DNA of 64,000 nucleotides from Escherichia coli. GTDB taxonomy: Bacteria; Pseudomonadota; Gammaproteobacteria; Enterobacterales; Enterobacteriaceae. Made by a program: the position numbers and the translations under genes. The stretch lies in NCBI RefSeq assembly GCF_030384885.1, contig NZ_CP128613.1; one strand, 5' to 3'. Shown piece after piece: positions 2,275 through 5,200 of the stretch (within the stretch, counting starts at the first letter, position 1; every line of letters starts with the position of its first letter). The notes beneath the pieces are model-generated. The model ran no database searches. It worked only from the letters and a program-made list of their open reading frames with translations, and was not told where the DNA came from.

Positions 2275-5200
2275 TTACGCCTTCTCGATGTTGACTAAGA
2301 ACGCTTTATATTCCGGCGTTTGCGAGTTTGCATCACCGACATTCGGCGTCAGAGTGTTAGCGATATAACCTTTACGCGCGACACCCTCAAAGCCCCAGTG
2401 GATTGGAATACCCACCGTTTCAACCTGCTGACCGTTTACATTCAGTGGTTTCAGACGGCGCGTTACCACAGCCACCGCGCGGATAAAGCCACGCTTGCTG
2501 GAGACAGTGACACGATCGCCATTGGCAATGCCTTTCGCCGCCGCCAGCGTTTCGCTGATTTCCACAAACTGTTCCGGCTGAGCAATTGCGTTGAGCAACG
2601 CGTGCTTGGTCCAGGTGTGGAAGTGCTCGGTCAGACGGTAGGTCGTACCCACATACGGGAACTGCTCTTTTTTACCCATCCGCAGCGCGTCTTGTTCATA
2701 CAGACGAACCACCGGGTTAGACACCACGTTCGGATGCAGCGGGTTAGTGCCCAGCGGCGTTTCAATTGGCTCGTAGTGTTCCGGGAACGGACCTTCCGCC
2801 ATTTTGTTGATGGCAAACAGGCGTCCCATCCCTTCCGGCTGCATGATAAACGGCCCGGTTGGCGTACCCGGTGCGGCATTGCCGAAGTCCGGAATATCGT
2901 TACCCGTCCACTTGCTGCCGTTCCACTGGATCAGCATCCGTTTCGGATCCCAAGGTTTACCGTTAATATCCGCCGAAGCACGGTTGTACAGCACGCGACG
3001 GTTGAGCGGCCACGCCCAGGCCCATCCCAGCGTATTCCCCAGACCGGACGGGTCGGAGTTATCGCGGTTGGCCATCTGGTTGCCCTGCTCTGTCCAGCTA
3101 CCGGTGTAGATCCAGCAAGACGATGCGGTTGTACCGTCATCACGCAGATGCGCAAAGCTACTCAGTAACTGACCTTTCTTCGCAATCAGTACGCCATTGG
3201 CGTCATAGAGATCTTCCAGCGCATAGCCGTTGTTCTCTTTTGCCACTTCGTCAGACTGCGGCTCGTGCGGCTGCTTGTAGTTCCAGCTCATCTTCATCAG
3301 CGGTTCTACACCTTTACCACCTTCGGCTTTGTACAACTCGCGAAGATGATGGTAGATACCCGCCAAAATTTCGCCGTCGTTACGCGCTTCGCCCGGCGCA
3401 TCCTGACCTTTCCAGTGCCACTGCAACCAGCGACCGGAGTTAGCGATAGAACCATCTTCTTCAGCAAAGCAGGTCGAAGGCAGACGGAATACCTCTGTCT
3501 GAATAGATGCCGGATCGACATCGTTCGACTCGCCGTGGTTCTGCCAGAAAGTAGAGGTTTCAGTCACCAGCGGATCGATAACCACCATGTACTTCAGCTT
3601 GCTCAGGCAGCTCACCACTTTGTTTTTGTCCGGGAAGGACGCAACCGGGTTAAAGCCCTGGCAGAAATAACCGGTGACTTTGCCTTCATCCATCATGTTG
3701 AAATACTTGATGACGTCGTAGGTCTGGTCCCACTTCGGCAGCCAGTCGTAGCCCCAGTTATTCTCTTTCTGTGCGGCATCGCCGTAGAAAGATTTCATCA
3801 GGCTAACGAAGAACTTCGGATAGTTGCTCCAGTAGTTCACCTGATCAGCCAGCGTCGCTTTCGGCGTGTTCGCTTCCAGATACGACTGCAAATCAACCTG
3901 TTTTTCTGACGGCAGCGTCAGATAACCCGGCAGGCTGGTAGAGAGCAGGCCTAAGTCGGTCAGGCCCTGAATGTTAGAGTGACCACGCAATGCGTTCACG
4001 CCGCCACCAGCCATACCCATGTTACCGAGCAGCAACTGGATCATCGCCATAGTACGGATGTTCTGCGCACCCACGGTGTGTTGGGTCCAGCCCAGCGCGT
4101 ACAGGAAGGTGGTTGTGCGATCCGGCGCGCTGGTGGAGGCCAGCACTTCACACACTTTCAGGAAGTCAGCTTTTGGCGTACCGCAGATGTTTTCTACTAC
4201 GTCCGGCGTGTAACGGGAAACGTGCGCTTTCAGCAAGTTCCACACACAGCGCGGATGAGTCAGTGTTTCATCGCGTTTCGCATAGCCGTTTTCATCGAAC
4301 TGATAGTTCCAGGACGACTTATCGTACTGACGTTTTTCAGCGTCGTAACCGCTGAACAGACCGTCTTCGAACACAAAATCATCACGCACCAGCAGGCTGG
4401 CGTTGGTGTAATGCTTAACGTATTCGGCGTTGATCTTGTTGTTTTCGATCAGGTAGCGCAAAACGCCAGACAGGAACGTAATGTCCGTACCGGAACGAAT
4501 AGGTGCGTAGATATCCGCCACAGAAGCGGTACGCGTAAAACGGGGATCGACAACGATCAAGGTTGCATCGTTATTGTTTTTCGCTTCCATCGCCCAGCGG
4601 AAACCGACGGGATGCGCTTCAGCAGCGTTACCGCCCATCACCATTACGACGTTAGCGTTTTTGATATCCACCCAGTGGTTGGTCATCGCACCGCGACCAA
4701 ATGTTGGAGCAAGACTTGCTACCGTTGGTCCGTGTCAGACGCGCGCCTGGTTGTCTACCGCCAGCATCCCGAGGGAGCGGGCAAATTTTTGAGTCAGCAT
4801 CCCGGTTTCGTTGCTGGCACCGGAAGCACACAGCATACCGGTAGAAAGCCAACGGTTTACCGTTACGCCCTGCTCGTTCTTTTCAATAAAGTTAGCGTCA
4901 CGGTCTGCCTTCATCAGCTTCGCAATGCGGGAGAATGCTTCTTCCCAGCTAATGCGCTGCCATTTATCAGAACCTGGCGCACGATATTCCGGGTAGCGCA
5001 GACGGTTTTCGCTGTTGACGTAATCCAGCAATCCGGCCCCTTTCGGGCACAGCGCACCACGGCTTACCGGATGATCCGGGTCACCTTCAATGTGATAAAT
5101 CGCTTCTCTGGCATTTTTCGCGCCATCACCCAGGCTATACATCAATAGCCCGCAACCTACGGAACAGTATGTACAAGTGTTACGGATCTCTTTCGCGCGT

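Follow-up and report, generated by a model that had tools for sequence, protein, structure and literature searches.

The experimentally dissected reference for bacterial SECIS elements is that of E. coli fdhF, whose product FDH-H carries selenocysteine (Sec) at residue 140. In E. coli the apical stem-loop sits 11 nt after the UGA, and a bulged U and a loop G-U are the contacts with SelB known from fdhF studies. SelB binding and SECIS-dependent Sec insertion have reportedly been published for both the fdhF and the fdnG elements, and synonymous mutations that break the hairpin are said to abolish Sec insertion in fdhF. The fdnG gene of E. coli K-12 (b1474), in the operon fdnGHI, belongs to formate dehydrogenase-N (FDH-N), a nitrate-inducible, membrane-bound enzyme; full-length, selenium-containing FdnG of about 113 kDa was reportedly described for K-12 in the work behind PDB 1KQF, the structure of E. 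coli FdnG. Its paralogue fdoG (formate dehydrogenase-O, FDH-O) is expressed aerobically and lies at another locus, with fdoHI-fdhE. Further afield, Sec-containing FdhA of Desulfobacterota, Chloroflexota, Bacillota, and other phyla has its in-frame UGA at the codon homologous to this one, followed by a hairpin that lies no more than about 45 nt downstream, but in per-sequence MFE folds this hairpin has another sequence and register (e.g., CGGCUCUGGCAGAGUCG), without the E. coli-type apical pairs. The general mechanism of selenocysteine insertion by SECIS and SelB has been described, with the loop of bacterial elements placed 16–37 nt from the UGA (PMC10778597), and the 11-nt placement has been used in engineering (PMC8326192).

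The window analyzed here is a 64,000-nt stretch of an E. coli genome (contig NZ_CP128613.1). A mechanical ORF list shows two large ORFs on its minus strand, one at 4735–5322 (195 aa plus stop) and a second listed at 2275–4686, from its first ATG. The frame of the second is open from 4734, and the two are in the same frame (588 nt, or 196 × 3, for 4735–5322; 2460 nt, or 820 × 3, for 2275–4734). Translation of 2275–5322 as a whole gives 1016 codons with a single internal stop, in the context LAVDNQARV*HGPTVASLAPTFGRGAMTNHW; the minus-strand TGA is at 4737–4735 (...GCG CGC GTC TGA CAC GGA CCA ACG GTA GCA...). The joined ORFs yield a protein of 1015 residues in which the TGA is residue 196. An earlier, sequence-only reading of this stretch had proposed that the two ORFs are one gene split only by the TGA at 4735–4737, naming different frames as a finding that would speak against it, and had given the context as VDNQARV-U-HGPTVA. 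The shared frame and single internal stop bear out the first of these, and the translation reproduces the second exactly. Its remark that ORF callers split the gene holds for the naive list, while in the closest complete genome RefSeq/PGAP has fdnG as a single CDS whose coordinates agree with those of the joined frame.

Judged by its sequence, the gene is fdnG of formate dehydrogenase-N, the identity that had been proposed for it. The product aligns with 1KQF chain A over residues 1–1015 (2391.7 bits), with residue X196 of the structure opposite the TGA, and scores 1621 bits on the NCBIfam equivalog TIGR01553 (cut-off 814.2), with residues 2–1014 of 1015 covered. It differs from 1KQF by A317V, L342F, E365A, Q665K, S666A, and N933A, none of them near Sec196. 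K-12 has the same gene, operon, Sec position, and residues on either side of it. Downstream are fdnH and fdnI (Table 1), and the order fdnG-fdnH-fdnI agrees with the annotation in the closest genome. Because fdnI matches the FDH-N gamma model and falls below the cut-off of the FDH-O gamma model (268, cut-off 341), the operon is taken as that of FDH-N rather than FDH-O. The FdnG translation has SRRQFFK at residues 4–10, presumably a twin-arginine export signal, and CTYCSVGCG at residues 50–58, which we take to be the N-terminal Fe-S cysteine motif. A consensus scan for an FNR box upstream of fdnG gave only a two-mismatch site, one of 71 matches window-wide, and it is given no weight here.

Table 1. 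Features of the fdnG locus, in window coordinates.
Feature	Coordinates	Strand	Basis or remarks
fdnG, FDH-N catalytic alpha subunit	2275..5322	-	1016 codons, one frame, Sec at codon 196
fdnH, iron-sulfur beta subunit, same operon	1378..2262	-	TIGR01582, 482 bits (cut-off 335); RefSeq agrees
fdnI, cytochrome b gamma subunit, same operon	732..1385	-	NF007558 (FDH-N gamma), 486.9 bits (cut-off 339)
UGA selenocysteine codon (Sec196)	4735..4737	-	read directly; aligned with X196 of 1KQF
SECIS element, Rfam SECIS_3 (RF01989), model positions 1–59	4682..4740	-	84.3 bits, no truncation
Apical hairpin GGUAGCAAGUCUUGCUCC, 18 nt	4706..4723	-	MFE, Rfam consensus, RNAalifold
Lower stem, 5' strand	4725..4732	-	pairs with 4700–4692 in MFE
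Lower stem, 3' strand	4692..4700	-	pairs with 4732–4725 in MFE
Frozen synonymous zone, 71 nt identical to fdoG	4670..4740	-	roughly codons −1 to +20

The SECIS_3 match has an E value of 1.4e-18 over the whole window and a score above the Rfam gathering score of 63 bits; position i of the Rfam model corresponds to window coordinate 4741 − i. A spacer of 11 nt (4734–4724) separates the UGA from the apical hairpin, which is presumed to be the SelB-binding part and has a bulged U at 4721 and a G-U-C loop at 4715–4713, the loop beginning 19 nt past the UGA. The MFE structure of 61 nt (−17.4 kcal/mol) includes the apical hairpin, and the whole hairpin spans 4692–4732. The stem-loop that the sequence-only reading had placed directly 3' of the UGA is present both in the MFE fold and in the SECIS_3 match, and the interval it had marked, 4690–4737, takes in the UGA and the entire hairpin; the Rfam match runs from 4682 to 4740. 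For the lower stem, the choice between the Rfam register and that of the E. coli MFE fold is ambiguous. In the Rfam register, A8-C48 and A12-G44 are unpaired in the E. coli sequence; across 42 sequences, paired cells make up about 86% in either register.

The fdhF element (SECIS_2, RF01988) has the same series of features, with a UGA, an 11-nt spacer, GG, a bulged U, a stem of 4–5 bp, a G-U-C loop, and CC. A comparison with fdhF had been suggested as a check on the fold, and the spacer, the bulged U, and the loop G-U all match. The two differ in the stem (UGCA/UGCA in fdhF, AGCAA/UUGCU here), in the length of the apical hairpin (17 nt and 18 nt, respectively), and in the lower stem and Rfam family; the window reaches only 28.8 bits on SECIS_2, where the cut-off is 70. 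The SECIS of K-12 fdoG is identical over 59 nt, with the same SECIS_3 score and the same Sec196 context, as part of a block of 71 nt, beginning 3 nt ahead of the UGA, that fdoG and fdnG share without a difference. This is the longest identical run between the two genes, which overall have 74.5% nucleotide and 77.1% amino-acid identity. Synonymous codons within it are identical in 18 of 18 cases, vs. 421 of 733 gene-wide.

Homologues from other species were found via the downstream protein anchor GAMTNHW alone, 45 nt downstream, and the sample consists of the first 120 matches listed, which is not a random selection. Among the matches listed, the codon is TGA in 114 of 117 homologues and Cys in the remaining three. 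The three Cys homologues, the sole negative controls (n = 3), are without the hairpin and under the Rfam cut-off, one of them reaching 31.5 bits on SECIS_3. The apical helix is 98% paired, compared to 27–49% for slid-partner controls. At pair 21:33, 31 sequences have GC, eight have AU, and two have GU; at pair 24:30, AU occurs 33 times and CG eight times. These changes are compensatory, and all four columns are synonymous third positions. RNAalifold, run on 43 sequences, independently recovers the same apical hairpin, and of the 42 unique FdnG-type sequences, 40 retain all six pairs together with U20 and G26U27.

Synonymous codon choice is similarly conserved. Across the element, 299 of 302 synonymous codons (99%) are identical in 19 Enterobacterales loci, vs. 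49% and 51% in the flanks, and the per-codon profile falls steeply at codons −2 and +22. The Thr at codon +4 is ACG in all 59 cases and the Ser at +7 is AGU in all 33, and no variation is seen at G18 and U27, both of them four-fold degenerate third positions. A segment of 121 nt around the site is at least 99% identical in 5402 E. coli records.

Unusual stability of the hairpin was not found, either against 200 dinucleotide shuffles of the 61 nt (z = −0.56) or against synonymous recodings of the same peptide, of which 54–86% were at least as stable (5000 recodings, two codon models). Thermodynamic stability was dropped as evidence, since the native element is no more stable than these controls; bacterial SECIS elements are not defined by unusual stability. 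The sequence-only reading had named the absence of any stable hairpin after the UGA as an observation that would count against it. A hairpin is present, but this is a weak test, as the controls fold equally stably. What is above chance is the specific shape and sequence of the hairpin, not its stability: the six apical pairs with U20 and G26U27 recur in only 0.3–0.6% of synonymous recodings. Stability being uninformative, the case for a SECIS is carried by covariation and synonymous-site conservation.

Two other accounts of the site would do without a SECIS, and both seem close to inconceivable. If the TGA were a genuine stop, fdnG would be a pseudogene or would encode two separately translated products (195 aa and about 800 aa), as might be read from the mechanical ORF list with its two ORFs and the ATG of the second at 4686. 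The translation of 2275–5322 shows no frameshift or other lesion, however, and in 1KQF the 1015 residues form one continuous chain in which position 196 is non-standard. The 5402 E. coli records are at least 99% identical at the TGA and around it, 114 of the 117 homologues among the matches listed, which come from many phyla, have TGA at the same codon, and the codon is followed by a SECIS. A second possibility is that the nucleotides downstream of the UGA are conserved only through constraint on the active-site peptide (HGPTVASLAPTFGRGAMTNHW), making the hairpin a by-product with no role at the RNA level. That peptide is itself strongly conserved, many synonymous recodings fold as stably as the native sequence, and the 31.5 bits of the one Cys homologue come from common coding sequence alone. 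Peptide constraint cannot account for synonymous identity of 299/302 beside flanks at about 50%, and the invariance of G18 and U27 at four-fold third positions, the compensatory third-position changes at 21:33 and 24:30, the rarity (0.3–0.6%) of recodings that give the apical pairs with U20 and G26U27, and the lack of the hairpin in all three Cys homologues also argue against it.

A further alternative concerns the 71-nt identity of fdnG and fdoG only, which could be due to recent gene conversion rather than to selection on the SECIS. The identity is perfect and sharply bounded, in genes that are 74.5% identical overall, and this is how conversion tracts look. On the other hand, the same 60-mer is common to 17 loci, in genera as far apart as Photorhabdus, Providencia, Yersinia, Klebsiella, and Enterobacter, and the flanking synonymous sites of those loci are only about 50% identical. 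Since the 60-mer is kept between genera, conversion within one genome cannot explain its conservation. Conversion is an improbable source of the 71-nt identity as a whole, although it may contribute to it.

The explanation preferred here, and held to be almost certain, is that the TGA at 4737–4735 is the Sec196 codon of fdnG and that the following ~55 nt of coding sequence also act as a SECIS. Nothing found contradicts it. The mechanism is established for E. coli, and we infer it for the copy in the window; in this strain, SelB would be expected to bind the element and selenocysteine to be inserted. As a ribosome neared the UGA, the mRNA just downstream would fold into a small hairpin with its apical part beginning 11 nt past that codon. 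SelB would bind the apical stem-loop with its C-terminal domain, through the bulged U and the loop G-U, and would hold Sec-tRNA(Sec) and GTP with its N-terminal part. Tethered in this way at the A site, the Sec-tRNA would outcompete release factor 2 (RF2), so that selenocysteine would be inserted; the hairpin would then be melted by the ribosome and read as His-Gly-Pro-Thr-Val-Ala-Ser-Leu-Ala-Pro-Thr-Phe-Gly-Arg-Gly. Within the enzyme, selenocysteine would be the active-site ligand of the molybdenum cofactor. The Sec codon and SECIS of fdnG were already known, and the site adds no new biology; the sequence-only reading had called it known biology, and a textbook Sec codon and SECIS is what it proves to be.

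From comparison of the coding sequences, the synonymous freeze reaches from codon −1 to about +20 (4740 to ~4675), so that the constraint on the RNA is wider than the SelB-binding hairpin. The frozen zone extends some 20 nt beyond the hairpin base and coincides with the block identical in fdnG and fdoG. A separate function for this 3' extension seems doubtful. Candidate roles could include mRNA geometry at the ribosome entry channel, an extended lower helix shielding the UGA from RF2, or a regulation target common to both FDH paralogues; alternatively, the extension may simply belong to the extended SECIS stem already known, or may be a tract left by gene conversion.

The value of the site lies mainly in annotation. 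A gene caller for which UGA is always a stop will break this locus into two truncated proteins and lose the catalytic residue of a major enzyme of anaerobic respiration, and recognition of the UGA and its SECIS restores one selenoprotein of 1015 residues. In scans for bacterial SECIS elements, hairpin stability has no discriminating power, as random and synonymous controls fold equally well. Discrimination comes from the score on a covariance model, from covariation in synonymous columns, and from a local synonymous freeze.

The genes for Sec insertion, selD, tRNA-Sec (selC), selA, and selB, are annotated in NZ_CP027579.1, the closest but non-identical complete genome, where they were checked, and are presumably present in the window's own genome as well. 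Each of selA, selB, selC, and selD is found in 5424–5425 of 5426 E. coli genomes. Between the window and NZ_CP027579.1, positions 2000–6000 are 100% identical, and the whole window has about 60 SNPs and indels plus a 4.4-kb difference in the Rhs region. The intron region of the window has a shifted, 99.8% match in the same genome.

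Direct reading of the minus strand places an in-frame TGA at 4737-4735 (GCG CGC GTC TGA CAC GGA CCA ACG GTA GCA AGT CTT GCT CCA ACA TTT GGT CGC GGT GCG ATG ACC), where the sequence-only reading had put it. The ORFs on either side have lengths of 588 and 2460, each a multiple of three, and translation of 2275-5322 gives 1016 codons interrupted by one stop only, within LAVDNQARV*HGPTVASLAPTFGRGAMTNHW; that reading was thus also right that the two share a frame, and about the peptide flanking the UGA. Once the stop is written as X, the joined product can be aligned from residue 1 to residue 1015 with chain A of PDB 1KQF (“formate dehydrogenase, nitrate-inducible, major subunit”); this chain likewise shows X at position 196, and the two differ elsewhere by only a handful of substitutions. 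The joined protein reaches 1621 bits on the TIGR01553 equivalog of NCBIfam (cut-off 814), and its translated N-terminus has both a twin-arginine motif, SRRQFFK, and an Fe-S cysteine motif, CTYCSVGCG. The first gene downstream is fdnH (TIGR01582, 482 bits) and the second an fdnI of the FDH-N type (NF007558, 486.9 bits), which falls below the cut-off of the FDH-O gamma model. The complete genome closest to the window is that of E. coli 2013C-4282 (NZ_CP027579.1), where RefSeq has a single fdnG CDS with exactly the same coordinates, neighbored by fdnH, fdnI, and yddG. A toxin-antitoxin pair lies directly downstream of fdnI. On the other side, ~65-78 nt upstream of the fdnG ATG (start 5322), is an FNR-like half-palindrome with two mismatches to TTGAT-N4-ATCAA, a level of match found 71 times in the window against ~42 expected; it may fit, weakly, the anaerobic regulation expected for fdnG.

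The UGA and the sequence following it lie in a full-length match to Rfam SECIS_3 (RF01989) at 4740-4682, minus strand, with 84.3 bits (gathering score 63) and an E-value of 1.4e-18 for the whole window; the window coordinate of Rfam position i is 4741-i. The experimentally dissected SECIS is that of fdhF, and studies of it established that SelB contacts the bulged U and the G-U in the loop. The K-12 fdhF element matches a different model, SECIS_2 (87.1 bits), but has the same plan as here: UGA, 11 nt, GG, bulged U, short stem, G-U-C loop, CC. That of K-12 fdoG, the FDH-O paralog (9183-9241 in comparison locus L004), is identical to the window element across all 59 nt. This is the selenocysteine site of fdnG, which is already known, and the element belongs to SECIS_3. 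All defining SECIS features that could be tested were found; unusual stability, the exception, is not a defining feature. The bacterial mechanism is reviewed in general terms elsewhere (PMC10778597), and the 11-nt placement is in use in engineered E. coli SECIS elements (PMC8326192).

Features of the UGA site, its surroundings, and the selenocysteine machinery (window coordinates unless noted)
Feature	Position	Strand	Basis or remark
Upstream ORF	4735-5322	minus	195 aa; mechanical ORF list
Downstream ORF	2275-4686 as listed from first ATG; frame open from 4734	minus	mechanical ORF list
UGA	Rfam positions 4-6	minus	SECIS_3 alignment
Spacer, 11 nt	4734-4724	minus	between UGA and apical hairpin
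Apical hairpin GGUAGCAAGUCUUGCUCC, 18 nt	4723-4706 (Rfam 18-35)	minus	MFE + Rfam
Bulged U of apical hairpin	4721 (Rfam 20)	minus	MFE + Rfam
G-U-C in apical loop	4715-4713	minus	MFE + Rfam
Lower stem	4732-4725 paired with 4700-4692 in the MFE	minus	MFE + Rfam
FNR-like half-palindrome TTGATTTCGCGCAA	5387-5400	minus	
RelE/ParE-family toxin + HigA-family antitoxin (yddM)	119-681	plus	closest-genome annotation
Porin gene, intact, 366 aa	6695-7795	plus	annotated ompC in closest genome
Hypothetical protein + leucine-rich-repeat protein	about 7959-10540	plus	
Group II intron	24164-25981	minus	Rfam
Intron D1-D4	25864-25981		93.1 bits
Intron domain V/VI	24164-24239		62.8 bits
RydC small RNA	63903-63966	plus	Rfam RF00505, 80.1 bits (gathering score 48)
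selD	710067-711110 in NZ_CP027579.1		annotation
tRNA-Sec	3659412-3659506 in NZ_CP027579.1		annotation
selA + selB	3734666-3737898 in NZ_CP027579.1		annotation
Cys (TGT or TGC) homologs without the hairpin	comparison loci L014, L024, L095		Shewanella xiamenensis, a Dehalococcoidia MAG, a proteobacterial MAG

The hairpin that the sequence-only reading placed after the UGA is present, but what distinguishes it is shape rather than stability. The MFE of the 61-nt segment is -17.4 kcal/mol, not above chance relative to dinucleotide shuffles (z = -0.56), and among 5000 synonymous recodings of the same peptide under two codon models, the share at least as stable was 54% with codons drawn uniformly and 86% with codons drawn as the gene itself uses them; the apical hairpin by itself accounts for only -4.5 kcal/mol. 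Absence of a stable hairpin, proposed as a refutation, therefore has little power as a test, because shuffled and recoded sequences fold as stably. All six apical pairs were formed in 3-5% of recodings, and these together with U20 and G26U27 in only 0.3-0.6%.

Homologs were collected from one genome per species by the motif GAMTNHW (GGNGCNATGACNAAYCAYTGG), which is found 45 nt beyond the UGA and leaves the SECIS region unconstrained, giving at least 120 loci. Among the matches listed, from Proteobacteria, Desulfobacterota, Bacillota, Chloroflexota, Planctomycetota, Actinomycetota, Nitrospirota, and Acidobacteriota, TGA was found exactly 15 codons upstream of the motif in 114 of 117 usable hits and a Cys codon in the other three. 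The window and 42 unique FdnG-type 60-mers (HGP/HAP context) from these matches were aligned without gaps. The apical helix is 98% paired, with compensatory changes at 21:33 (GC 31, AU 8, GU 2) and 24:30 (AU 33, CG 8), and each of the four columns involved is a third position at which changes are synonymous (Val GUN, Ala GCN, Leu CUN, Ala GCN). When the 3' partner was shifted by 1-3 columns, pairing across all of the tested structure fell from 91.5% to 27-49%, and RNAalifold recovered the same apical hairpin with neither Rfam nor the E. coli structure as input. The lower stem is ~86% paired, with two alternative registers fitting equally well. The six apical pairs with U20 and G26U27 are kept in 40 of the 42 unique FdnG-type sequences but in none of the three Cys homologs, among matches listed; the latter reach at most 31.5 bits on SECIS_3. 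Non-proteobacterial Sec homologs outside the FdnG-type group (Desulfobacterota, Chloroflexota, Bacillota) differ in hairpin sequence and register, e.g., CGGCUCUGGCAGAGUCG.

Synonymous positions around the site are also nearly invariant. Codons here are counted from Sec codon 196. In 19 loci chosen purely by amino acid identity (at least 83% across 150 codons; Photorhabdus, Providencia, Citrobacter, Enterobacter, Klebsiella, Yersinia, Superficieibacter, and E. albertii), synonymous codons matched the window at 299 of 302 positions from -1 to +15, compared with 440/892 upstream and 559/1093 downstream. Codon by codon, the freeze in Enterobacterales loci runs from -1 to about +20, ending abruptly at -2 (33%) and +22 (0/18). 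Among wider relatives, all 59 use ACG for Thr+4, a four-fold degenerate codon, and Ser+7 is AGU in 33 of 33; in E. coli itself, 5402 records match the 121 nt surrounding the site at 99% identity or more. Judging from these comparisons, such a pattern cannot be explained by protein constraint, whereas an overlapping RNA signal can explain it. The frozen zone extends ~20 nt past the hairpin base. This extension most likely belongs to an extended SECIS stem, because the predicted MFE structure pairs Rfam positions 1-3 with 54-56 and 6-7 with 50-51; that it has a separate role is conceivable. The same block recurs in the paralog: identity between fdnG and K-12 fdoG is 74.5% at the nucleotide level and 77.1% at the amino acid level, the longest stretch they share without a difference is 71 nt, starting 3 nt before the UGA (4740-4670, minus strand), and synonymous codons agree in 18/18 cases in codons 195-214 vs. 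421/733 gene-wide. Gene conversion may have contributed to this identity, but it cannot account for conservation between genera.

Canonical SelB/SECIS-dependent recoding of UGA196 to selenocysteine, with SelB presumed to bind the element, is thus the nearly certain explanation. The codon would be decoded through SelB and the SECIS; in FDH-N, the molybdenum is coordinated by Sec. Reading the TGA as a true stop, or fdnG as a pseudogene, is excluded by the conservation of the TGA, the solved structure, and the presence of the SECIS. That the hairpin is a mere by-product of a conserved peptide is likewise excluded, in this case by covariation at synonymous positions and by the synonymous-site freeze. 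Among 5426 complete E. coli genomes, selAB was found in 5425, selC in 5424, and selD in 5425, and a match to the fdnG query was absent from one. The machinery can be inferred, with high prior probability, for the window's own genome, an indirect step because the window is not identical to NZ_CP027579.1. With a 4-kb fdnG query the best match was only 60-80% identical in ~24 E. coli records, and with a 121-nt SECIS query it was 90-95%, the fdoG-type level, in 31, so a small minority of strains seems to lack fdnG while retaining fdoG.

While fdnG is 100% identical between the window and NZ_CP027579.1, the window as a whole shows a 4.4-kb difference in the Rhs region besides ~60 SNPs and indels (especially in 1700-1969, 9077-9082, 23048-24099, and 27980-28980). 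Among the differences are five SNPs in fdnH, an insertion of 6 nt at 9077-9082, beyond which (from 9077) the annotation coordinates of that genome are shifted, ~45 clustered SNPs in an ISAs1 transposase, and a Rhs/VgrG region that is shorter by ~4.4 kb. Across 8000-32000, identity to any other complete E. coli genome stayed at ~94% or below, and none was closer. RydC lies near the end of the window. The porin gene adjoins yddG, and the leucine-rich-repeat protein gene is followed by narU-narZYWV; in K-12 this locus presumably holds the degraded genes yddL/yddK. The group II intron, with an ltrA-type reverse transcriptase/maturase between its RNA domains, is flanked by the ISAs1 transposase and the Rhs/VgrG cluster, and copies with at least 80% query coverage occur in only 82 of the 5426 complete E. 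coli genomes.
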